From: Natronomonas sp.
Lineage (GTDB): Archaea; Halobacteriota; Halobacteria; Halobacteriales; Haloarculaceae
Assembly (NCBI GenBank): GCA_040409725.1
Contig: JARWGK010000105.1
Location: forward strand, 1,808 to 65,807
DNA length: 64,000 bases
Direction of reading: 5' to 3'
Below the pieces are notes generated by a model. It had not been told where the DNA came from, did not search any database, and worked only from the letters and a program-made list of their open reading frames with translations. Of this stretch, positions 3,614 through 19,576 are shown in pieces. The number at the start of each line of letters is the position of its first letter. Position 1 is the first letter of the stretch. The position numbers and the translations under genes are program-made.

Positions 3614-6433
3614 ATGTCGGACACGCCGGCGACAACGGAGACGGCCGAGGACCCGCCGCTGGGAGCGACGCTTCTCGCCGGCGTGATCGCAGCCATCATC
3701 GTCGTTCCGGTCCTGTGGGTCGCGGTCGTCGCGGCCAGCGTCGATCCGGGTCGGGCCGCGGAACTGCTGTTCCGAGAAAAGACCCTCGGAATTCTGTCGA
3801 ATACCCTCGCCCTCGTCGTCGGTGTCACGGTTCTTTCGGTGCTCATCTCGGTGCCGCTTGCGTGTCTCACCGAACTCACGGACCTGCCGTACCGACGCTT
3901 CTGGGCCGTCGTCGTCGCGCTGCCGCTCGTCGTCCCGAGCTACATCGGCGCGTTTTCCTACATTTCCGTGTGGGGTCCACAGGGAGAGATACAGACGCTT
4001 CTGGAACCGTTCGGTGTCGAGTCACTGCCGGAAATCTACGGCCTCGGCGGAGCTATATTCATCCTCGCGCTGTACAACTACCCCTACGTCTACATCACGA
4101 CGCGGGCCGGACTGCGATCGTTCGACAAGACGTATCTGGACGCCGCCCGTTCGCTGGACGAACGCGCCTGGCGTGGCTTTTTCCGGTCCGTCCTGCCGTT
4201 CGTTCGCCCGGCGATCGCCTCCGGGGCGTTGCTCGTCGCGCTGTATGCCGTCGGTGACTTCGGAACGCCGTCGATGCTCCAACTGGACGTGTTCGCTCGG
4301 GTGATCTACGTCGAGTACAACGCCTTCGGACAGGAGTACGCCTCATTGCTTGCGATGCATCTGGTCGTCATTGCGCTGCTCGTCCTCGCCATCGAATCCA
4401 GCGTCCGCGGTGACGACACCCTCCACGGCAGCGCCCGGGGCAGTTCCCGCGAGTACGTCCTCGAACTCGGTCGCTGGAAGTACGCTGCTGTCGCTGGATG
4501 TGGACTCCTCGTCGCGGTGAGTCTCCTGTTTCCGGTTGGGGTGTTGCTGATGTGGCTGTTCAGAACGCCGGACGTGTACGCGCCGACGCTCGCCTTCGAT
4601 TGGTCGTATGCGATCAACTCGGTGACGGTGTCTGCGGCTGCTGCAGTCGTCGCCGCCCTCGCTGCGATTCCGGTTGCCTACCTCTCGGCGCGGTACTCCT
4701 CGCGGCTCGTCGCGCTGTTCGAGCGGGCGACGTACATCGGCTACGCCGTTCCGGGTGTCGTCATCGGGTTGAGCCTCATCTATTTCAGCACCCGCTATGC
4801 GGCGTTTGCCTACCAGACGCTCCCGCTCGTCGTCTTTGCCTACGTCGTGTTGTATCTGCCACAGGCAGTCGGTGCGACCAGAACTGGCGTGTTACACGTC
4901 AATCCGCGGCTCGTGGAAGCGGCCCGCTCTCTCGGCTGTTCGCCGCTTCGGGCGTTTCGACACGTCGTGTTACCGCTCATCGTTCCCGGACTCATCGCCG
5001 GTGCAGCACTCGTTTTCCTGACCGCGATGAAGGAACTGCCCGCGACGCTGCTGCTTGGACCTGCTGGATTCGAGACGCTTGCGACGTTCATCTGGCGGAT
5101 CGAACGCAGCATGCTGTACGGCTTTGCGGCCGTTCCTGCCCTCGTGTTGATCTGTGTCTCTGGGCTGTCGATGCTCGTCGTCGTCTTCCGTGATCGCTAC
5201 GACCGCCGCGGAACGATCAGCGGATCGATCCAGTTCGACGACGAGGAACTGGACGTCTCTGAACCGACCGCCACAGACGGCGGAACGACGACCGGTGCCG
5301 GTCGCTCCGACTCGAATTTCTCTCCCTCTGCCGGTGGATTTGCGGCGTTCGAAGACGACACACACAAATCCACTGGAGTGAACGACAGTGATGTGGTCCT
5401 GACACTCGACGGCGTGGGAAAATCCTTCGGCGAGACCGCCGCAGTCGAGGCGTTCTCGATCGATGTCGAGGAGGGTGAACTGTTGACCCTCGTCGGTCCC
5501 TCCGGCTGTGGGAAAACGACGACACTCCGGCTGATCGCCGGATTGGAGTCTCCTGACGCCGGCGAGATACAGATCGGCGGTGAGACCGTCGCAACCGAGG
5601 AGTTCTCCCGATCGATCGAGGACCGAAACGTCGGAATCGTCTTCCAGGATTTTGCGCTGTTTCCACACAAAACCGTCGCCGAAAACATCGCCTTCGGACT
5701 GTACAACGTCGACGACGACGAGCGCAATCGACGCGTCGCGGAGTTACTCGAGACTGTCGGGCTTTCGGGGTACGAGGACACCTATCCGGCGTCGCTGTCG
5801 GGCGGGCAGAAACAGCGCGTCGCACTGGCGCGCTCACTCGCCCCCGAGCCGGACGTGCTTCTGCTCGATGAACCGCTGTCGAACCTCGACGTCGGCCTGC
5901 GGGTGGAGATGCGAGAGGCCGTCAGATCCATCCTCGGGGACGTCGGCGTCACCGCGGTGTGGGTCACTCACGACCAAGAAGAGGCGCTGTCGATCGGCGA
6001 CCGCGTCGGGGTGATGTCCGACGGCGAACTCAGACAGGTCGGATCGCCGGACGACGTGTTCCTCCGCCCTGCCTCACGAACGGTCGCGGACTTCCTCGGG
6101 GAGGCGAGTTTCCTCACCGGTGAGATCCGCGGCGGGACAGCCGAGACGCCGATCGGACCGATCGACACCGATCGGTTGCTCGGTCCGACGGCCGGTTCGG
6201 TCGATATCCTGCTCCGCCCGGACGATATCGAACTGGAACCCACCGATTCCGCGGCCGCCGACGGCCGAATCGTCTACCGCCGATTCAACGGCCCGACGGT
6301 CAGCTACCGGATCGAACTTTCCGATGGGACCCAACTCGGCTGCACCCGCCCCCACGACCGAATTCTCGATTACGGGACGCCGGTGTCGATCGAGGTCGTC
6401 GCCGAACACGAGTTGCGATCGTTCTCCCGATAG
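3614..6433 (+). CDS. fused ABC transporter permease (two BPD_transp_1 repeats) plus ATP-binding domain, FbpB/FbpC-like
   Basis: Two EAA loops (YLDAARSL, LVEAARSLG), about 12 TM segments, then Walker A GPSGCGKT, LSGGQ, Walker B LLLDE, H-loop VTHD and a TOBE-like tail in one 939-aa ORF. Confidence 0.9.
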   Translation: MSDTPATTETAEDPPLGATLLAGVIAAIIVVPVLWVAVVAASVDPGRAAELLFREKTLGILSNTLALVVGVTVLSVLISVPLACLTELTDLPYRRFWAVVVALPLVVPSYIGAFSYISVWGPQGEIQTLLEPFGVESLPEIYGLGGAIFILALYNYPYVYITTRAGLRSFDKTYLDAARSLDERAWRGFFRSVLPFVRPAIASGALLVALYAVGDFGTPSMLQLDVFARVIYVEYNAFGQEYASLLAMHLVVIALLVLAIESSVRGDDTLHGSARGSSREYVLELGRWKYAAVAGCGLLVAVSLLFPVGVLLMWLFRTPDVYAPTLAFDWSYAINSVTVSAAAAVVAALAAIPVAYLSARYSSRLVALFERATYIGYAVPGVVIGLSLIYFSTRYAAFAYQTLPLVVFAYVVLYLPQAVGATRTGVLHVNPRLVEAARSLGCSPLRAFRHVVLPLIVPGLIAGAALVFLTAMKELPATLLLGPAGFETLATFIWRIERSMLYGFAAVPALVLICVSGLSMLVVVFRDRYDRRGTISGSIQFDDEELDVSEPTATDGGTTTGAGRSDSNFSPSAGGFAAFEDDTHKSTGVNDSDVVLTLDGVGKSFGETAAVEAFSIDVEEGELLTLVGPSGCGKTTTLRLIAGLESPDAGEIQIGGETVATEEFSRSIEDRNVGIVFQDFALFPHKTVAENIAFGLYNVDDDERNRRVAELLETVGLSGYEDTYPASLSGGQKQRVALARSLAPEPDVLLLDEPLSNLDVGLRVEMREAVRSILGDVGVTAVWVTHDQEEALSIGDRVGVMSDGELRQVGSPDDVFLRPASRTVADFLGEASFLTGEIRGGTAETPIGPIDTDRLLGPTAGSVDILLRPDDIELEPTDSAAADGRIVYRRFNGPTVSYRIELSDGTQLGCTRPHDRILDYGTPVSIEVVAEHELRSFSR

Positions 6434-9590: not shown

Positions 9591-10811
9591 TCAACACCAT
9601 TCCTCGTACTGATACACGCGAGCGCGGTTCAGCGGCTCCGGTTCGCGATCGGTGCCGTCGTAGGCCGCCCGGTGGGTCTCGTAGGAAATCGACAGCGAAC
9701 CCTCCGGATCGAGGTCCCGTGGGATCGTCTCCTCGGCCCGTCGGCGGTTCCAGGCTTCCAGTGCGTCGGTGCCGGACTCCGAAAGCGGTTCGATTTCGAG
9801 GGCCTCTGCAGCCGTTTCGAGGGCCCGCTTTCCGCGTTCGCTCCGGGTGATCAGCGTCGTCGCGTCGTTCGGACTACCGATCGTTCCGGCGCTGATGTCG
9901 GCCGCCCGCCCGGTGAAGTCGGCACACTCGTCACAGCCACGCAACACCGCAGTCGAGAGGTCCTCCAGGTCGACCGACAGCAGTTCCCGGCCGTCCTCGT
10001 CGTAGACCGTGACCGCGCTGCCGATCACCTGCAGCCCCTCGACGGCCGTCGGATCGACGCCGTGGTCTGCGATCAGCGATCGGAGCCGATCGGCCTCGAA
10101 GCTGCTCGTACACATGAGCGAGACGGTGAGATCGACGCTCGCCAGATCGTCCTCGCGTCCGAATTCGAGCAGGGCGGCGGCTCCCTCGATGACACACGGC
10201 GTTCCGACGAGTGCCAGATCCGGGTCCTCGAGTCCGGAATCCTTCAGAAGCTCTCTGAGACGCCCCAGTTGCATCGTCTGGCTGTAGACGCTGCCGGCCG
10301 TCTCGATCAGTTCCGTCGGTGACGTGACCAGGGCGGCCTCGCCTCCGAACGCGTCGTTGTCGCTTGCGACGACGGCGCCGTCGATCGCTCCGGCCGACAG
10401 CAGCGATGCGAGCAGGGCGGTGACGGCACCGCCGTTTTCTCCGGCGTCGTGGACCACGGACTCCGTTGCCCGGGCGGCGTAGGTTTCCGGCTCGGGTCGG
10501 GAGGCCTCGATCGTCTCGAGGACCCGTTCGTACCGCAGTCCGGCCCGTGGGCAGTAGTCCCAACACCGCGAGCAGCCGGTACACATCTTCACGAGCGTCG
10601 GCCGCCCTTCGAGTTCGTCGATCCCGAGTGAGTTCGACGGACAGGCCGCAACACAGCTACCACACTGGACACAGCGACCCGATTCGATCACCGCCTCGTC
10701 CAGATCGCGGAACCACGTCTTTCCGGCCGGTTCGTTCACGTCCGAATCGTCCCGTGGGTCGTTGCCGACCGACGGGGATCGCGTTTCGTAGGTATCGTTC
10801 GATTTCGACAT
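9591..10811 (-). CDS. coenzyme F420 hydrogenase/dehydrogenase beta-subunit family protein (FrhB/FpoF-like) with 2x[4Fe-4S] ferredoxin domain
   Basis: CVQCGSCVAAC and CTGCSRCWDYC, GGAVTALL, AGSVY, LVGTPC, CDECADF, DISAG. Confidence 0.88.
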   Translation of the reverse strand: MSKSNDTYETRSPSVGNDPRDDSDVNEPAGKTWFRDLDEAVIESGRCVQCGSCVAACPSNSLGIDELEGRPTLVKMCTGCSRCWDYCPRAGLRYERVLETIEASRPEPETYAARATESVVHDAGENGGAVTALLASLLSAGAIDGAVVASDNDAFGGEAALVTSPTELIETAGSVYSQTMQLGRLRELLKDSGLEDPDLALVGTPCVIEGAAALLEFGREDDLASVDLTVSLMCTSSFEADRLRSLIADHGVDPTAVEGLQVIGSAVTVYDEDGRELLSVDLEDLSTAVLRGCDECADFTGRAADISAGTIGSPNDATTLITRSERGKRALETAAEALEIEPLSESGTDALEAWNRRRAEETIPRDLDPEGSLSISYETHRAAYDGTDREPEPLNRARVYQYEEWC

Positions 10812-13207
10812 CAGTCTCCCTCCGCTTGCTTCGTGATCGGTCCTGTCTCTGCTCGTCCGGTCACGATTCGATAGAGCCGTTCCTCCGAGGCCGAATCGAG
10901 GAAGTCACTCACGTCGCCGTCTGCGGCGGTGACGAGACGGCGGACGATCGCCGGCAACCGCTCGGTCGGCACCTCCGTCGTCAGCCAGTCGGCGAACGTC
11001 TCGGCGCCGAGATCGCCGCCGAGTCCGATGTCGACCGCCGGCTTCGTCCCCGACTCGTCGCGGTGGGTTTCCCCTCGCAGGGCGATGTCGGCGATCTGTG
11101 GCTGTGCACAGGATGCCGAACAGCCGCTCATGTGGAGCCGGACGACCTCGGGTGGGTCCTCGAGTTCGGCCTCGACCCACTCGTCGAGTTCACGCGCCCA
11201 CCGAAAGCCCCGAGATTTCGTCTCGATGACGCCGTAGCTGCAGAACTCCGATCCGGTGCAGGTGACGATCCCGCGGCTGAAGGGACCCGGATCGGGGCTG
11301 TACCGATCCAGCAGGTCCGTACTCCGGAGCCGCTCTAGGTCCTCCGAACTGACGCCGGTCAGGACGACGTTCTGGTTGGGCGTCAGCCGGAGCCGGCCGT
11401 CGCCGTAGGTTTCGGCCAACTCGCCCAGCCGAGCGAACTCCGAGCCGCCGATCCGTCCGGTGGGGAGACACAGTCCGACCCGGTAGGTCCCGTCGGATTC
11501 CGGCTGAACGCCGACGTGATCACCCCGGTAGCCGGTCGTCAGATCCTCGCCGCCGTCCTCGAACGCGAAGGGAAGGTACGACTCGAGTTCCGATCGGAAT
11601 CGGTCGATGCCCCACTCCGCGACGATGAACTTCAGACGGTTGACCGCGGTGTCGAGGTAGCTGCCGTGATCGATGAACAACTCCGCCGCGGCGAGGGTAA
11701 CGGGCGTGACCTGATCCGGCTCGAGGAACACGCCGAGGTCAGTTCCGACGCGCGGTCCGTCGGAGAGTCCGCCACCGACGGTGACGTGAAAGCCCTCACG
11801 GCCATCCTTCCGTGCCGGTCGGAAGCCGAGATCCTGAATCTCCGCCCGTCCGCAGTTCTCCCGACAGCCGACGACGCTCACCTTCAGCTTCCGTGGCAGA
11901 TTCGCGTACCGACGTTCTCCCTCGAAGGCGTCGGCGATTTCCTCGGCGATCGCATCCGGATCCAGCGTCGTGTCGGCGTGGCTGTGGTCGGGTGTGGGAC
12001 AGGAGACGACGTTCCTGAGGGTGTTTCCACTCGCCTGAAGCGTCGTCAGCCCAACCGCCTCGTAGCGATCCCAGATCTCGGGGACGTCCTCCGGTGAGAT
12101 CCAGTGCATCTGGATCCCCTGTCTGGTCGTCACGTCGAGGAAGCCGTCGCCGAAGATCGGATTCTGCTCGTCACCGCCGTGTTCTGGCGGTGCACACGCA
12201 AACTCCTCGGCAATCCTTCCGAGGGTCTTCGCCTGGGCTGCGGTCAGACGCCCGGCCGGAACCTTCGTCCGAAGCATGAAGTGGTCGTCCTGCTTTTGGG
12301 TGTACAGTCCGAGCAGGTGGAGGCGGCTGAAGATGTCCTCGCCGAGTTCCTCGGAGAGCCCGTCGAACCCCTTCGGGGCGACCTGACGCACCGCCTCGTG
12401 TAACTGCACCGGATCCCAGCCGGCCGATTCCCGACGGATCCAGTCCGTCAGACTCCCTTCGTAGAACCGGACGTCCTCGAATCCCAGCTCCCGCAGGACG
12501 ACGTAGGTGTGACTGAGCCGTCTGGCGGTGTTGCAGTACAGCAGGATCTCGTCGTCCCGGGAGATTCCCCGCTCTTCGAGTTCGGCTTCGATCTCCGCCC
12601 GCGGACGGAGCCGTCTGTCTGGGCCGACGAGCGCCTCCCATCCTAGCTGCAGTGCTCCCGGAATATGGGCCTGATCGTACTCCGCCTCCGTCCTCGTGTC
12701 GACGAGCTTCGCCTCGGCCCGCTCCGTCGCCTCCTCGACGGCCTTCCGGTCGGCGATCGGCGGATGCTCCGGTGGATCGGCGTCGTAGCACACCGGGGTC
12801 GAATCCGGTTCGTTCGTCGTGGTTTCACGACCGCGTCGCCAGACGGTGATGTCACCGTCCAGGAGGGACAACTCGCCGCGGTGGCCACAGACCGCCGCCG
12901 TGAGAAGAAAGCGGGCGGCGTTGACGCCTCGATCCCCGTCGTAGGCGACGACGTGATCGTCTGCTGTGACCCCGGCAGATCCGAGCAGTTCGGCAAACTC
13001 CTCGGGATCCGGCAGCATCCCGGGTGTGACCGTACTCGGGTCGCGGAACGAATCGAGCGGTACGTTGATCGCCCCCGGGATGTGGCCGGCGCGATACTCC
13101 TGTGGATCTCTCGTGTCGACGACGGTGACCGACGAGAGGGTGTCACGGAGCGCACCCGGAGACAGGAACACGTCTGTCGGTTGTTCGAGCATACGCTGTA
13201 TGGTCAT
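10811..13207 (-). CDS. fusion of tandem-rhodanese sulfurtransferase and ferredoxin-type nitrite/sulfite reductase (siroheme/[4Fe-4S])
   Basis: N-terminal DTR...GHIPGA rhodanese repeats with active-site LYCNTARR and FYEGSLTDW; C-terminal MLRTKVPAG, TTRQGIQMH, LPRKLK, CTGSEFC...SGCSASC; start at ATG 13207. Confidence 0.9.
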   Translation of the reverse strand: MTIQRMLEQPTDVFLSPGALRDTLSSVTVVDTRDPQEYRAGHIPGAINVPLDSFRDPSTVTPGMLPDPEEFAELLGSAGVTADDHVVAYDGDRGVNAARFLLTAAVCGHRGELSLLDGDITVWRRGRETTTNEPDSTPVCYDADPPEHPPIADRKAVEEATERAEAKLVDTRTEAEYDQAHIPGALQLGWEALVGPDRRLRPRAEIEAELEERGISRDDEILLYCNTARRLSHTYVVLRELGFEDVRFYEGSLTDWIRRESAGWDPVQLHEAVRQVAPKGFDGLSEELGEDIFSRLHLLGLYTQKQDDHFMLRTKVPAGRLTAAQAKTLGRIAEEFACAPPEHGGDEQNPIFGDGFLDVTTRQGIQMHWISPEDVPEIWDRYEAVGLTTLQASGNTLRNVVSCPTPDHSHADTTLDPDAIAEEIADAFEGERRYANLPRKLKVSVVGCRENCGRAEIQDLGFRPARKDGREGFHVTVGGGLSDGPRVGTDLGVFLEPDQVTPVTLAAAELFIDHGSYLDTAVNRLKFIVAEWGIDRFRSELESYLPFAFEDGGEDLTTGYRGDHVGVQPESDGTYRVGLCLPTGRIGGSEFARLGELAETYGDGRLRLTPNQNVVLTGVSSEDLERLRSTDLLDRYSPDPGPFSRGIVTCTGSEFCSYGVIETKSRGFRWARELDEWVEAELEDPPEVVRLHMSGCSASCAQPQIADIALRGETHRDESGTKPAVDIGLGGDLGAETFADWLTTEVPTERLPAIVRRLVTAADGDVSDFLDSASEERLYRIVTGRAETGPITKQAEGD

Positions 13208-13449
13208 AGTACCACCCCTACTGTATGGGTTCCTGAGCGGGAAACAACGGCACCAACCGCGGACGCCTCGCCCATCCGTGCTACTCTGGTATTTGAGATA
13301 GGTTCTCGGAGCGTTCGGCGCTTTGAGGTGCTGTACCCGGCGAATACGCGGATCGCAGCGCGGCCGGAAAAACGGACACGATTGCCGGATTCGTGGCGGC
13401 ACACGGGTCGTGTCTCCTCGGTGGCTGTCGCGGTCCCCCGACCCGGGTC

Positions 13450-13485
13450 GGTCAGTCCGTTGCGGGCGGTCAGTCCGTTGTGGGC
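13450..13485. repeat. 18-bp tandem duplication spanning the histidine kinase stop codon
   Basis: ggtcagtccgttgcgggc (13450-13467) followed by ggtcagtccgttgtgggc (13468-13485), 1 mismatch. Confidence 0.7.
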
Positions 13486-15446
13486 GGTCGGTTCGTGCCG
13501 GGTTCTGTCACCCGAACCGTGCGCTCGTCGTCCCGGATCTCGAAGCGAGCCCCACCGTCTCGGCCGTCGGTTACGGTTATCTGCCAGCCGTGGGCCTCGA
13601 CGATCTCCTCGACGATCGCCAGTCCGAAGCCGGTTCCCTGTTCTGCGGTGGTGTAGCCCGACTCGAACACCTGGTTTCGGTCTTCCGGTGGGATCCCGGG
13701 TCCGTCGTCCTCGACGTAGAACCCGTCCTCCAGATCGCCGACCCGAACGACCACCGAGGAAACCTCGTCCTCGTCGTCACCTTCGGCCTCCGGCCGATTG
13801 CTCGTGGAGCTGTGCTCCACGCTGTCACCGGGAGCGTCAGCGACCGGTGGCTCGGAAGAGCTTGCTCTTCCGGTGTCGTCGGACTTCGTCCGACTATTCG
13901 TCGAACTATGTTCGACGCTATTCCGATACAGATTCTCGAACAGCTCCTTGATGCGGCTCGGGTCTGCGTGGACCGTTCCGCTCGCGGTGATTTCGATCTG
14001 TGCCCCGTCTGTGGCGACGTTTTGCCACGTCGATTCGGCGACACCGCGGAGCCCGACCGTCTCGCGTTCGTCGACGGTCTCGCCCTGTCTCGCCAGCCTG
14101 AGGAGGTCTTCGAGCAGCTCCTCCATTCGATCGAGCGCCGACACCGCTTCGGCCAGCTCCTCGCCCTCGAAGTCGGCCTGTGCCAACTCGACGTACCCGC
14201 GGGCGACGTTCAGCGGATTTCGCAGGTCGTGGCTGACGATGCTCGTAAACTCCTCGAGTCGGTCCCGTTCCCGACGGAGCTGCCAGTACTGCTCTTCTTC
14301 CTTCCCCACGTCGACGACCGTTCCGATCACCGCCGGTTCGCCTTCGAGTTCGATCCCCCGGCCGAGGAGTTCGACGTTGATCGTCTCGCCGTCGGGCGTC
14401 ACCGCGATGTACGGCTGCCGGATCGATTCGGCGTCGCCGCCTTCGACCTGCCGGAGGTTTTCTGCGAGCCGATCCCGATCGGCCGGCTCGACGAGTTCGA
14501 GCAGCGACTCCTCGACGAGTTCGTTCGCGGTCGATCGATACCCGAACAGCTCCGCGAAGGGTTCGTTGTGGTAGATGATCGTCTCGTTTCGGGCGATGTA
14601 GATGCCGACGAGATTCTGCTCGACGAGCAGCTGATACCGCTGTTTCGCCTTTGCGAGTGTCCGTTCGCGCTCCTTCCGCTCGGAGATATCGCGGAGCACG
14701 CCGAGTGAACCCTGGAAGCGCTCACCCTCGTACGGCAACACGCCCATGTGGTCCTCACACGGCACCGGAGCACCCTCCTTCGGCTGTATCTCCACCTCGA
14801 AGGTGACGCTATCGGGTCCCGCCTCGGAGAGGATCTCCCCGAGCTTTCTTTCGCCGGTCGCCACAGCATCCGGATCCTTGATGATCGACGGCTTCGACCC
14901 GATGATCTCGCGTCTGTCGTATCCCACGAGGTCGAGAAACGCCTCGTTGACGTACGTGAACCGACCGTCGGTGTCGAGAATGTACACCGGGTCGTCGAGT
15001 GCCTGCAACAGCGTTTTGAATCGATCGCTGTCACGCTCTGCCCGCGCCGTCCGTATGTCGTGTTTGATTCGCTCTGCGACGTATTCGAAGGTTTCCGAGG
15101 TGCCCTTCTGGATGTAACTCGATGCGCCCGCGTTGAGGGCGTCGGCCGCGACCGTCTCATTGCCCTCGCCAGTCAGCAGAATAAACGGTACCGACGCATC
15201 CGGGAACTGCCGACGAAACGTCTGCAGAAATTCGATGCCGTCCGTTCCGGGCATCTGGTAGTCGCTGACGATACAGTCGATTTCCTCCCGCTCGTCGGTG
15301 AGTCGTCTCAGTGCAGCCTCGGCAGTTTGCTCCGTTATCACTTCGAACCGCTCGTCTTCTCGTTCGAGAAATTCCGCAGTGAGTTCGCCAAATTCGGCGT
15401 CGTCGTCGACGTGCAGGATCCGGATCGAGCGACCCATGTTGGACAT
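13470..15446 (-). CDS. hybrid sensor histidine kinase (REC-PAS-PAS-HisKA-HATPase)
   Basis: ILHVDDD/CIVSDYQMP/ILLTG receiver, two PAS-like repeats, H-box SHDLRNPL, N-box ENLYRNSVEH, G boxes VEDDGPGI and GTGFGL. Confidence 0.92.
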   Translation of the reverse strand: MSNMGRSIRILHVDDDAEFGELTAEFLEREDERFEVITEQTAEAALRRLTDEREEIDCIVSDYQMPGTDGIEFLQTFRRQFPDASVPFILLTGEGNETVAADALNAGASSYIQKGTSETFEYVAERIKHDIRTARAERDSDRFKTLLQALDDPVYILDTDGRFTYVNEAFLDLVGYDRREIIGSKPSIIKDPDAVATGERKLGEILSEAGPDSVTFEVEIQPKEGAPVPCEDHMGVLPYEGERFQGSLGVLRDISERKERERTLAKAKQRYQLLVEQNLVGIYIARNETIIYHNEPFAELFGYRSTANELVEESLLELVEPADRDRLAENLRQVEGGDAESIRQPYIAVTPDGETINVELLGRGIELEGEPAVIGTVVDVGKEEEQYWQLRRERDRLEEFTSIVSHDLRNPLNVARGYVELAQADFEGEELAEAVSALDRMEELLEDLLRLARQGETVDERETVGLRGVAESTWQNVATDGAQIEITASGTVHADPSRIKELFENLYRNSVEHSSTNSRTKSDDTGRASSSEPPVADAPGDSVEHSSTSNRPEAEGDDEDEVSSVVVRVGDLEDGFYVEDDGPGIPPEDRNQVFESGYTTAEQGTGFGLAIVEEIVEAHGWQITVTDGRDGGARFEIRDDERTVRVTEPGTNRPPTTD

Positions 15447-16697: not shown

Positions 16698-17903
16698 TCA
16701 CCGTGGGTCGAGCCGGACGATCGGTGCATCTCTGTCGTCGACCGCAACGTAGAGACGATCCGTGTCGGGAGCCACCGCAACGTCCCGCACTCGCCAGCCG
16801 CGTCCGGCGAGCAGTGGATCGCGTTCCTCGACCGCCCGCCCGTCGACGGCGAATCGACCGAGGTACTCTCCGGCCAGATTCCCGACGAAGAGATCCCCCT
16901 GCCAGTCGGGAAACGCCGACCCGTCGTAGAACGTCGCACCCGACGGCGGAAACCCACCCGATCCACACTCCCAGTAGTACACGGGATTCACGACGTCGTC
17001 GCGTTCGTGTGGCTGCTCACCGATCGGGTCGCCCGACGTGTAGCTACACCCGTAGTGTGTCACCGGCCAGCCGTAGTTGCCGCCTGCCTCGAGGACGTTT
17101 ATTTCATCGCCGTCCTGTTCGCCGTGTTCACTCTGCCAGATCTCTCCGGTTTCGGGATGGACGGTCATTCCCTGGACGTTTCGGTGTCCGTAGCTGAAGA
17201 TCGAATCCCGAACGTCCGGGTCGTCGACGAACGGATTGTCCCCGGGAATCGATCCCTTGCTCGTGAGCCGCAGCGTGGCCCCGAGTTCGTTCGTCGTGTC
17301 CTGTGAGACGTGATCCGGCCCGAAATCTTTGAACTGCCGATCGCCGGTCGTCACGTAGAGCATTCCATCGGGGCCGAAGAGCACCCGAGAGCCGTAGTGG
17401 CCACTCGAATCGACGAACGGCCCGGCGACGTGTATCGTCTCGAAGTCGACGAGCCGCTTCCCTTCCCGATCGAATCGGCCTCTCCCGAGGTGAGTCGCCG
17501 TCTCTCCGGCCTCGTTTTCGGCTGCGTAGGTCAGATACACCCACGGCTGGGCCGGGAAATCCGGATGGATCGCCACGTCGAGCAGCCCGCCCTGCCCGAC
17601 CGCGTGTACCTCCGGCGTTCCGTCGAGTTCTTCGATCGATCCCGTCTCGCGGTCGAGGAGATTCAACTGACCGGTTCGCTCCGTGACGAGCATCGCCGAC
17701 TCCTCCGGCAGGAACTCGATTCCCCACGGGTGTGTCAGCCCATCGGCGACCGTTTCGAGCCTGAAATCCCCGTCTTCTCCGCCCGACTCTTCGGTCTCCT
17801 CGGAGAAGCTGACACAGCCACCGAGTGCAACCGCCGCCACCGCCGGTGTCGTTCGCAACACGGTGCGCCGATCGATTCTGTCTGGTGTCTTCATCGTAGT
17901 CAC
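16698..17903 (-). CDS. PQQ-dependent glucose/sorbosone dehydrogenase family lipoprotein (Tat)
   Basis: DRRTVL Tat motif, LGGC lipobox, GLTHPWGI, GQGGLLD, HYGSR, YGHRNVQG, GGNYGWP; GTG start overlaps upstream stop (alternative ATG 17894). Confidence 0.9.
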   Translation of the reverse strand: MTTMKTPDRIDRRTVLRTTPAVAAVALGGCVSFSEETEESGGEDGDFRLETVADGLTHPWGIEFLPEESAMLVTERTGQLNLLDRETGSIEELDGTPEVHAVGQGGLLDVAIHPDFPAQPWVYLTYAAENEAGETATHLGRGRFDREGKRLVDFETIHVAGPFVDSSGHYGSRVLFGPDGMLYVTTGDRQFKDFGPDHVSQDTTNELGATLRLTSKGSIPGDNPFVDDPDVRDSIFSYGHRNVQGMTVHPETGEIWQSEHGEQDGDEINVLEAGGNYGWPVTHYGCSYTSGDPIGEQPHERDDVVNPVYYWECGSGGFPPSGATFYDGSAFPDWQGDLFVGNLAGEYLGRFAVDGRAVEERDPLLAGRGWRVRDVAVAPDTDRLYVAVDDRDAPIVRLDPR

Positions 17904-19576
17904 CGTTCGAAGTGAGCGAGCAACGCGTCGTGCAGCGAGCCGTTGCTTCCGAGCAGGGGACGCCGGGTGGCGTCCTCGTCGAGGACGAGCCGATACTCCG
18001 ATCCCGTTTCGTCAGTGATCCGACCACCGGCCTCACGCAGCAGGAGTATGCCGGCCGCGACGTCCCACGGGTAGGTGTCGTTTTCCCAGACCGCGTCGGC
18101 GCTTCCGACGGCCACGTACGCGAGATTCAACGCTGCGCTGCCGATCCGCCGAACCCCCTGTGTCTCGTCGTAGAACTGCCGAAGGAACGCGCCCTGTGGA
18201 TCGTACCCGCTCAACAGCATCCCCTCGTCGAGTCGGTTCCGGTCGGTTGGTTCGGCCCGAACGTCGTTCTGATAACAGCCACGGCCACGGACTGCGTGAA
18301 ACATCTCGTCGGCTTCGGGGTTGTACACGACGCCGACGACCGGTTCTCGATTCTCGTCTACCATCGCTATCGAAATCGCGTAGTTCGGGTTTCCGTGTGC
18401 GAAGTTCCCCGTCCCGTCGAGTGGGTCGACGATCCAGACGTACTCCGGTGTCCCCTCGACGACCATGTCCTCCTCGGAGCGGAATCCGTGTGACGGAAAC
18501 TCGTTTTCGATCACGGCCTCGATTATGTGTTGACTCTGATAATCCGCCTCCGTGACGATGTCTGCCTTGTCGGATTTGTACTTGATCTGCTCCACCTGCC
18601 CGTGGAGTTCACGGAGCGCTTCACCGGCCGCCCGTGCTGCTTCCCGTGCGACCCGCGATGCGACCGTGAGGAAATCCTCCGGTGCGGTCTCCGGGAGCGT
18701 TTCGGTGGGTCCGGCGTCGGTCAGTTCACGCAGACTCCACCCGAGTTTTCCGGCCAGAGCGGCCATGAACGGATCGTCGAACGACGTTCGAACCACCTGA
18801 ACCGGGCGCTCTGCTCCGGTTATCTCGATCACCTCGTCTTCGACGTGCGTGACGTGCCGACCGCCGTCTATGACCACCATCGCCTCCGTCTCCGGCACCA
18901 CCCGGATCGTCGATTCCTCGCTCACGACGATCGGCTTCGCGCTGACGTTGTGGGTCTGGTACGGAACGATCTGGAGGGTGAAGTTGTTGTTCGGGTAGTG
19001 GATCGGCCCGTCGTTCGACAGCGCCTGTCCCGTACTCCCCGTTGGCGTACTGATTATGAGTCCGGTGCCGAAATACTCCCCGACGTACTCCGTGTCCACG
19101 AAACAGTGGAGTTTACACACCTTCCGTCCGTGTGATTTCTCTGGTGGGACGGTTTCGATCGTCACCTCGTTGATACCGGTCGTATCCAGGTCGGCGCCGG
19201 AGACGTGGTACTGCTGTCGCCTGTGGACGGTACTTCGACCGCGGAGAATCTCTGTCAGGGCGTCCGTCGCCTGTTCGGGATACACGCGGGAGAGGAAGGC
19301 GAGTGAACCGGTGTTGATCCCGAGAAAGGGGATGCTGTGCGGTGTGAACGTCCGTGCCGCCTCCAGAAACACGCCGTCACCACCGACGACGATACCGAGT
19401 GTCTCCCGTGCCGTATCGAACTGCTCCGTCGTCACGTCGTCACCGACGTCCAGGACGGTGAGTGCGATGTCGTTTTCGTCCGCCCACGCCGAAATTCGAT
19501 CGAGAACGGCCCCGCTTTCGGGTGTGGTGAGTACGATGAGTTCACGCACCGTCGCCAGACGACGTCCATGCATCAT
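17900..19576 (-). CDS. bifunctional NAD kinase / inositol monophosphatase-family phosphatase
   Basis: N-terminal GGDG, GINTGSLAFL, NE, STPTGST (NAD kinase); C-terminal SEE, DPLDGT, R.IGSAAL, WDVAAG (IMPase/FIG). Confidence 0.88.
   Translation of the reverse strand: MMHGRRLATVRELIVLTTPESGAVLDRISAWADENDIALTVLDVGDDVTTEQFDTARETLGIVVGGDGVFLEAARTFTPHSIPFLGINTGSLAFLSRVYPEQATDALTEILRGRSTVHRRQQYHVSGADLDTTGINEVTIETVPPEKSHGRKVCKLHCFVDTEYVGEYFGTGLIISTPTGSTGQALSNDGPIHYPNNNFTLQIVPYQTHNVSAKPIVVSEESTIRVVPETEAMVVIDGGRHVTHVEDEVIEITGAERPVQVVRTSFDDPFMAALAGKLGWSLRELTDAGPTETLPETAPEDFLTVASRVAREAARAAGEALRELHGQVEQIKYKSDKADIVTEADYQSQHIIEAVIENEFPSHGFRSEEDMVVEGTPEYVWIVDPLDGTGNFAHGNPNYAISIAMVDENREPVVGVVYNPEADEMFHAVRGRGCYQNDVRAEPTDRNRLDEGMLLSGYDPQGAFLRQFYDETQGVRRIGSAALNLAYVAVGSADAVWENDTYPWDVAAGILLLREAGGRITDETGSEYRLVLDEDATRRPLLGSNGSLHDALLAHFER

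Follow-up and report, generated by a model that had tools for sequence, protein, structure and literature searches.

In group I Fsr (MJ0870; structures 7NP8 and 7NPA), an F420H2-oxidising FrhB-like module and a ferredoxin domain feed a siroheme/[4Fe-4S] reductase, all within a single polypeptide whose reductase half is Dsr-like. A second kind of enzyme, 'aFsr', was predicted from gene adjacency by Susanti & Mukhopadhyay in 2012, and pairs an aSir-type reductase (aFsr-alpha) with a homologue of the N-terminal half of Fsr, Fsr-N (aFsr-beta); the prediction used Halogeometricum, Halorhabdus, Halalkalicoccus and Haloterrigena, with homologues in Rubrobacter and Thermobaculum, and rhodanese goes unmentioned in it (PMC3448663). 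Here we describe two adjoining genes, alpha and beta, in a 64,000-nucleotide stretch of DNA from Natronomonas sp. (GenBank assembly GCA_040409725.1, contig JARWGK010000105.1, positions 1,808 to 65,807 of the forward strand; the whole stretch is hereafter called the window). We hypothesize that their products together make up a two-subunit siroheme sulfite reductase, assimilatory in type and of the predicted aFsr kind, in which alpha carries an N-terminal tandem rhodanese and thiosulfate would be the sulfur source; taken as a whole, this is the reading to which we incline.

Two further threads in the literature lead to the same genes. A rhodanese-NirA fusion was noted in 2024 (PMC11237513), and the Natrinema J7-2 paper cites Falb et al. 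2008 for a route in Natronomonas pharaonis from thiosulfate to sulfite (NP3186A) and on to sulfide (NP4004A) (PMC3402447). NP_4006A is listed by Pfeiffer & Dyall-Smith (2021) as an unresolved F420-related protein that is 27% identical to MJ0870 (PMC8305020); by their positions, NP4004A and NP_4006A appear to be a fused alpha and its beta. The initial annotation of the window knew of no characterised enzyme with this arrangement, and that part of its claim to novelty stands, whereas the aFsr prediction of 2012, the fusion noted in 2024 and the thiosulfate route cited from 2008 all preceded it. Each element has thus been noticed before, and alpha-beta with its rhodanese is a variant of predicted aFsr. 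What is added here is the convergence of three separate literature threads on one gene pair, a sister lineage with TusA in the place of the rhodanese, and the finding that the fused alphas belong to a single clade and that each has a beta of its own that probably co-evolves with it, in what appears to be a horizontally mobile cassette.

The pair of the window resembles aFsr in having an aSir-type alpha beside a free-standing Fsr-N/FpoF-like beta (2x[4Fe-4S] and an FrhB core), in the coupling of the two genes and in a haloarchaeal host with F420 genes, and differs from aFsr as described in the tandem rhodanese of alpha. It is predicted to share with group I Fsr the feeding of a siroheme/[4Fe-4S] reductase by an F420H2-oxidising module, but it consists of two genes, has a NirA/SirA-type reductase, and contains a sulfurtransferase domain that group I Fsr lacks. 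NirA/SirA of M. tuberculosis (Rv2391, 1ZJ8) has the fold of alpha (30% identity), its K-x-K anion site and its four cluster/siroheme cysteines; unlike alpha, however, SirA takes its electrons from soluble ferredoxin as a monomer and has neither a rhodanese nor an FrhB partner. Stand-alone haloarchaeal tandem rhodaneses show the same two-domain build and an identical active-site loop, and the same thiosulfate-sulfite-sulfide chemistry has been proposed for N. pharaonis; there the two steps are placed on separate proteins, whereas in the window the sulfurtransferase lies within the reductase chain. The NADPH-sulfite reductase CysJI of E. coli likewise combines a flavoprotein input subunit with a siroheme hemoprotein, but CysJ, a diflavin NADPH reductase, has no relation to FrhB, and CysI matches alpha at just 1e-15.

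A fused reductase gene and its coupled partner

The open frame of alpha spans 13402..10811 on the minus strand, and the ATG at 13207 is taken as its likely start because homologues are ~780-810 amino acids (aa) long (Table 1). Pfam models identify two Rhodanese domains (E 4e-35) followed by NIR_SIR_ferr (1e-36) and NIR_SIR (9e-45), the last two each matching in more than one stretch, and the motifs YCNTARR (aa 224-230), CTGSEFC (aa 650-656) and GCSASC (aa 695-700) are all present, in agreement with the initial annotation, which had read a tandem rhodanese and a siroheme/[4Fe-4S] reductase in this one open reading frame (ORF). The four cysteines of the [4Fe-4S]-siroheme site (Cys650, 656, 696 and 700, encoded within 11108-11260) are invariant in an alignment of the family, and an AlphaFold2 (AF2) model of the whole chain is confidently predicted as one compact body (pLDDT 89, pTM 0.80). 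As for the rhodanese part, the N-terminal domain is predicted to be catalytically inactive, having Asp90 at the position of the catalytic Cys, and the C-terminal domain has the catalytic Cys in a six-residue loop. An additional GC-x3-C pair, Cys448/Cys452 (window 11852-11866), lies in the first NIR_SIR half; it is 98% conserved across fused alphas and is present in an unfused halobacterial alpha (L052), while plant nitrite reductase (NiR) is without it at the aligned position.

The stop codon of alpha (TGA, 10813-10811) shares one base with the start codon of beta (ATG, 10811-10809). Beta contains two CxxCxxCxxxCP motifs in its N-terminal domain, followed by matches to FrhB_FdhB_N (2e-18) and FrhB_FdhB_C (2e-29); base positions and domain matches alike bear out what had been read from the letters, namely a TGATG overlap leading into a 2x[4Fe-4S] and FrhB-like protein. 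Its motifs GENGGAVTALL, VGTPCVIEG, LMCTSSF and GCDECADFTGRAADISAGTIGSP align with Fsr (7np8), and beta has every flavin and cluster motif of Fsr-N.

Table 1. Features of the alpha-beta gene pair, in window coordinates
Feature	Position	Strand	Basis or residues
alpha: rhodanese-rhodanese-sulfite reductase fusion gene, 798 aa	10811..13207	minus	Domain matches, homologue lengths, AF2 model
alpha, N-terminal rhodanese domain, ~aa 15-125	12833..13165	minus	Asp90 (VVAYD) in place of Cys
alpha, C-terminal catalytic rhodanese domain, ~aa 150-260, loop LYCNTARRLSH	12428..12760	minus	Cys225 codon 12533-12535
alpha, NirA/SirA-type siroheme/[4Fe-4S] reductase module, ~aa 290-760	10928..12340	minus	Tyr302, Cys403, NLPRK440-L-K442, Cys650/656/696/700
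TGATG, alpha stop and beta start with one shared base (translational coupling)	10809..10813	minus	cTGATGt
beta: 406-aa FrhB/FpoF/Fsr-N-like flavo-iron-sulfur subunit, predicted F420H2 dehydrogenase (aFsr-beta type)	9591..10811	minus	
beta, N-terminal 2x[4Fe-4S] ferredoxin domain (CVQCGSCVAACP ... CTGCSRCWDYCP)	10539..10691	minus	Pfam and motifs
beta, FrhB_FdhB_N + FrhB_FdhB_C core (FAD/F420 site, [4Fe-4S])	9783..10484	minus	Pfam, alignment with Fsr 7np8

Distribution and evolution of the pair

A search of 401 Halobacteria genomes, a check of the kind that the initial annotation had proposed, revealed the rhodanese-NIR_SIR fusion at 36 loci; these belong to 35 genomes, of which several are assembled as single contigs. 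At all 36 loci a beta orthologue (47-63% identity) lies directly downstream on the same strand, and in 34 of them beta starts -1 to +3 nucleotides from the alpha stop (TGATG, TAGATG, TGAATG). More widely, a search of 5.8 billion proteins returned ~100 clusters (at 90% identity) with the combined architecture, and all those with a named source belong to Halobacteria (Natrialbaceae, Halorhabdus, Halovenus, Halococcoides, Haloplanus and Natranaeroarchaeum). Just one among 1.84 billion representatives at 50% identity covers both halves of alpha, and the fusion is therefore confined to one family. Within the window's own genus, seven genomes without the fusion are without beta too, and one genome (G120) has a fused alpha together with its only beta at 1,952,438-1,956,006.

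That the fusion is an artefact of assembly or gene calling is hardly credible. The assembly is fragmented (135 contigs) and resembles a metagenome-assembled genome (MAG), but the ORF is continuous at every one of the 36 loci, single-contig genomes included, the AF2 model is confident over the whole chain, and a 4607-bp Logan contig, assembled separately from a salt-lake metagenome that may share the window's sample, spans both junctions and is base-identical over 10567-13500. The initial annotation had raised the same doubt, and the recurrence of the ORF together with the Logan contig answers it. In a search for RNA support, the DNA of the window matched one sequencing run only, and this was a DNA run.

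Most Halobacteria carry an unfused alpha (~560-610 aa; 45-49% identical to the fused form) with an FrhB-like beta of its own (41-46% identical), the stop and start codons again overlapping. As called, the beta ORFs of the unfused pair are ~500-690 aa long, compared with typically ~410-430 aa for those of the fused pair. With start codons taken provisionally, the former appear to be ~100-190 aa longer at the N-terminus, the added length being an acidic, low-complexity extension of roughly 100-140 aa that contains a small Cys-rich motif (C..C.C; for example at L043:10003-10440 and L045:10014-10330, and at other loci); the beta of the fused pair is without this acidic, Cys-containing extension.

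In a maximum-likelihood tree the fused alphas make up one clade (SH-aLRT 97) and the unfused halobacterial alphas another (100), and bacterial alphas branch between the two. The tree of beta splits likewise, with the betas of fused and unfused alphas separating at 100, so that both fused subunits stand as clades apart from the widespread unfused pair. A single fused clade and a parallel split of beta indicate that the rhodanese was probably acquired once by alpha, and that each alpha has a co-evolving beta. Neither tree follows taxonomy, and in one Halorhabdus genome the fused pair occurs twice, as cassettes of different subclades (G394:C5:227250-230831 and G394:C1:1335977-1339563), one of them on a 295-kb replicon; both observations suggest that the cassette moves horizontally as a unit.

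Electron donor, substrate and source of sulfur

The reaction that we propose draws on homology and context in all its steps. Beta would oxidise F420H2 at its FAD, and single electrons would pass from the [4Fe-4S] cluster of its FrhB core through the two clusters of its ferredoxin domain to the [4Fe-4S]-siroheme centre of alpha, with beta taking the place of a soluble ferredoxin. Cys225 would accept the sulfane sulfur of thiosulfate as a persulfide, freeing sulfite beside the reductase, where it would undergo six-electron reduction to sulfide; the persulfide might leave as a second sulfide via a thiol, or pass to an acceptor. Haloarchaea without a route through adenosine 5'-phosphosulfate (APS) or its 3'-phosphorylated form (PAPS) could in this way turn thiosulfate or free sulfite into the sulfide that cysteine synthesis needs. 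The parts of this proposal differ in strength: judging from sequence, alpha and beta very probably form a complex acting as a sulfite reductase, F420H2 is its likely electron donor, and thiosulfate, entering through the rhodanese, has about an even chance of being its physiological input.

The best match of beta among proteins of known structure is the N-terminal, F420H2-oxidase half of Fsr (7np8 residues 8-301, E 1e-38), and the next are other F420 enzymes (FrhB, FdhB). Together with the constant pairing and coupling of the genes, Fsr as the nearest solved relative of beta sustains the view of the initial annotation that a separate FrhB/FpoF-like subunit serves an assimilatory-type reductase. 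In two Rubrobacteraceae MAGs (L070:838-8960, L071:687-5748) the genes run cofD-cofC-cofE-cysH-alpha-beta-(115 aa)-sat-cysC-TauE and alpha overlaps beta, an arrangement that puts alpha-beta inside assimilatory sulfate reduction and beside F420 biosynthesis. The initial annotation had treated a lack of cof genes as a point against its reading; CofE is present in the window's genome (PF01996, 246 bits), as is a CofH-like gene that matches in a single frame with 277 + 60 bits, under the TIGR03551 cut-off, and the two together indicate that the host is able to make F420. A weaker match to the CofH model neighbours the CofH-like gene and may be cofG.

The active-site residues of alpha are well supported, by alignment, as sulfite-type and not nitrite-type, which makes sulfite the likelier substrate. 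The motif NLPRK-L-K of alpha aligns with NLPRK-W-N of tobacco NiR, such that Lys442 stands at the position of NiR Asn226, the residue altered in the N226K entries 3vlx-3vm1; both Lys440 and Lys442 are invariant in the alpha family. Tyr302 is likewise invariant and Cys403 98% conserved, where NiR has Phe and Asn; these two residues may be the counterparts of the covalently linked Tyr69-Cys161 pair of SirA, reportedly described by Schnell et al. in 2005. The AF2 model finds its best structural match in the same sulfite reductase, M. tuberculosis NirA/SirA (1zj8, TMt 0.83), and matches 2akj and 5h8v as well, while DsrA and DsrB models score 27-49 bits on alpha against cut-offs of 340-390. The window's genome contains in addition an NiR-type paralogue (PRKFN, GVF) and a third paralogue (PRKWK), neither of them with a beta. 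The NiR-type gene is split over two contig ends (G000:C61:10868-12130 and G000:C48:1-852), and adjoins a siroheme decarboxylase, AhbA/B; after the NiR-type gene comes a 509-aa sulfite-oxidase-family molybdoenzyme (G000:C48:1592-3121).

For the rhodanese, the loop LYCNTARRLSH is at least 95% conserved in 97 fused proteins, with Cys225 itself invariant, and the domain appears to be under selection as an active sulfurtransferase. It matches RhdA (1e0c) at E 3e-24, and shares 48-55% identity with a tandem rhodanese that is widespread in haloarchaea as a separate protein with the loop LYCNTARR(I/L)SH; the window's genome also has a copy of the latter (G000:C124:5777-6484). The consensus loops of TST (CRKGVT) and MST (CGSGVT) are both unlike the CNTARR of alpha. 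In a Bipolaricaulia MAG (L068), whose alpha is the closest unfused relative (sister) of the fused clade, a 92-aa TusA with the Cys motif GEICPYT overlaps the alpha start, the order at L068:3040-9063 being TusA, alpha and beta (overlapping), a 57-aa ORF, a phosphodiesterase/sulfatase-like gene, uroporphyrinogen methyltransferase and siroheme synthase; this branch of alpha has thus had two different persulfide carriers attached to it. The TusA-family protein YeeD acts in thiosulfate uptake and decomposition (PMC11073785). Of 67 halobacterial genomes, 66 lack a Sat-type ATP sulfurylase, all fusion carriers and the window's genome among them, and matches to the PAPS-reductase family (PF01507) are weak everywhere (25-65 bits). 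Sulfite probably does not come from sulfate activation, with CysDN-type activation covered solely through these weak PF01507 matches. The simplest reading is that of the initial annotation, with thiosulfate split at Cys225, given the conserved loop, the kinship with tandem rhodaneses, the TusA of the sister lineage and the missing sat; that the sulfite is then channelled from the rhodanese is plausible in view of Cys225, the missing ATP sulfurylase and that TusA.

Several points weigh against our hypothesis. Some FrhB homologues run on ferredoxin, not F420, and NP_4006A is called 'too distant to assume isofunctionality' with Fsr (PMC8305020); aFsr was still 'putative' in 2022 (PMC9295563), and our literature search found no experimental paper on any aFsr. 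Beta could accordingly be an input subunit fed by ferredoxin or NAD(P)H, as in the homologue HCAR, whose FrhB fold it shares; all NCBIfam F420 models score under their cut-offs on beta, and its identity to Fsr is as low as noted for NP_4006A. We give this a small probability, because the match to ferredoxin-dependent HCAR (5dqr) is weak (E 5e-4), at least 30 orders of magnitude poorer than those to F420 enzymes, because the 2x[4Fe-4S] and FrhB architecture is that of Fsr-N and FpoF, and because cofD-cofC-cofE stand directly upstream of the bacterial alpha-beta operon and cof genes are present in the window's genome. Homology is also an unsafe guide to the substrate: group II Fsr (FsrII) had long passed for a sulfite reductase before it proved to be a nitrite reductase (PMC9295563). 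Plant nitrite reductases are the top-scoring solved proteins for alpha, with eight NiR entries ahead of 1zj8, its best NCBIfam match is to the ferredoxin-nitrite reductase model NF007125 (329.5 bits), and database records name alpha-type proteins 'ferredoxin-nitrite reductase'. An F420H2- or ferredoxin-dependent nitrite reductase with a regulatory or unrelated rhodanese is nevertheless improbable: the NF007125 score is far under the cut-off of 594, Lys442 replaces the NiR-specific Asn226, the best fold match is a sulfite reductase, and a separate NiR-type paralogue exists in the same genome; fusion to a sulfurtransferase, relatives in sulfate-assimilation operons and TusA upstream in the sister lineage point the same way.

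The role assigned to thiosulfate meets objections of its own. Lack of sat and cysH is equal in genomes that have the unfused alpha-beta alone, and so does not single out the fused form; YeeE/TsuA-type transporters show no correlation with the fusion; and no sulfur-transport or cysteine-synthesis gene is conserved beside the pair within 20-kb flanks, which hold lineage-specific housekeeping genes. A link between the fusion and loss of sulfate activation was considered and rejected, as hardly any of the Halobacteria tested has Sat, whether with the fusion or without it. The same sulfite reductase might instead use Cys225 to capture sulfur at or after the siroheme, in the manner of DsrC or TusA, delivering sulfane sulfur to the synthesis of cysteine, Fe-S clusters or thio-cofactors and avoiding free sulfide. 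Like rhodanese, TusA is a persulfide carrier, and it occupies the same position in the sister lineage; fusion genomes keep a stand-alone rhodanese with the same loop, so that plain thiosulfate cleavage is not missing there; and the modelled alpha is compact. Yet assimilatory siroheme reductases finish the six-electron reduction without releasing intermediates, as established for CysI and plant sulfite reductase, sulfide is unable to load a rhodanese without an oxidant, and the loop CNTARR, rich in Arg, is suited to a donor that is anionic, as thiosulfate is, which leaves this alternative unlikely. A bolder pair of proposals is, even taken jointly, slightly less probable again: that Cys225 intercepts partly reduced sulfur to yield protein-bound sulfane sulfur, as an assimilatory counterpart of DsrAB-DsrC, or that the enzyme is an eight-electron F420H2:thiosulfate reductase in which both sulfurs are moved intramolecularly.

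Neighbouring genes and haloarchaeal sulfur metabolism

We called and clustered the genes in the 20-kb flanks of the 36 fused and 18 unfused loci, and annotated the recurrent clusters. Conserved neighbours beyond alpha-beta were rejected as candidates, since SepF, citrate synthase, FtsY, prefoldin and the like reflect lineage synteny, and the histidine kinase upstream of the pair in the window (15446..13470) is not consistently present at fused loci. A stand-alone rhodanese near unfused alpha was too weak a signal to retain (2 of 18 loci within 10 kb, plus one Natrialbaceae genome with a copy ~9 kb away). Other fusions that could support an alpha-beta complex were also sought, and the long representatives containing a sulfite reductase proved to be of NirB type (Pyr_redox_2/BFD), not FrhB fusions.

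At a Natrialbaceae-type locus (L028:11917-12579) and 12 others of this type, beta is followed directly, on its own strand, by a gene for a DmsR_N + HTH_10 regulator, and regulation there may be like that of DmsR. In one genome alone, a weak PAPS-reductase-family ORF (~324 aa; G154:C1:1161853-1162401) is divergent from a fused alpha and ~700 bp from its start. Elsewhere in the window, an NAD kinase and an inositol monophosphatase are fused in one 558-aa ORF (17900-19576, minus strand), and an ABC permease, its ATPase and a TOBE domain are joined in one 939-aa chain (3614-6433, plus strand) beside a 371-aa binding protein.

Sulfide formation in haloarchaea is an acknowledged gap, for which the fused pair is a concrete candidate enzyme. 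Of the 67 genomes searched for Sat, 60 carry an alpha-beta sulfite reductase and just one has Sat. The fusion acts as a natural 'Rosetta stone', physically tying a sulfurtransferase to a predicted F420-type sulfite reductase, and the pair is among the few candidate physiological roles for F420 in haloarchaea, an open annotation issue (PMC8305020). Were a rhodanese or TusA indeed a catalytic partner of the siroheme site, as the bolder proposals have it, haloarchaea without APS/PAPS would have here their chief point of entry for inorganic sulfur. If our hypothesis is true, the pair would be the first characterised aFsr, and the first of the assimilatory sulfite reductases to have a sulfur-carrier domain built in.

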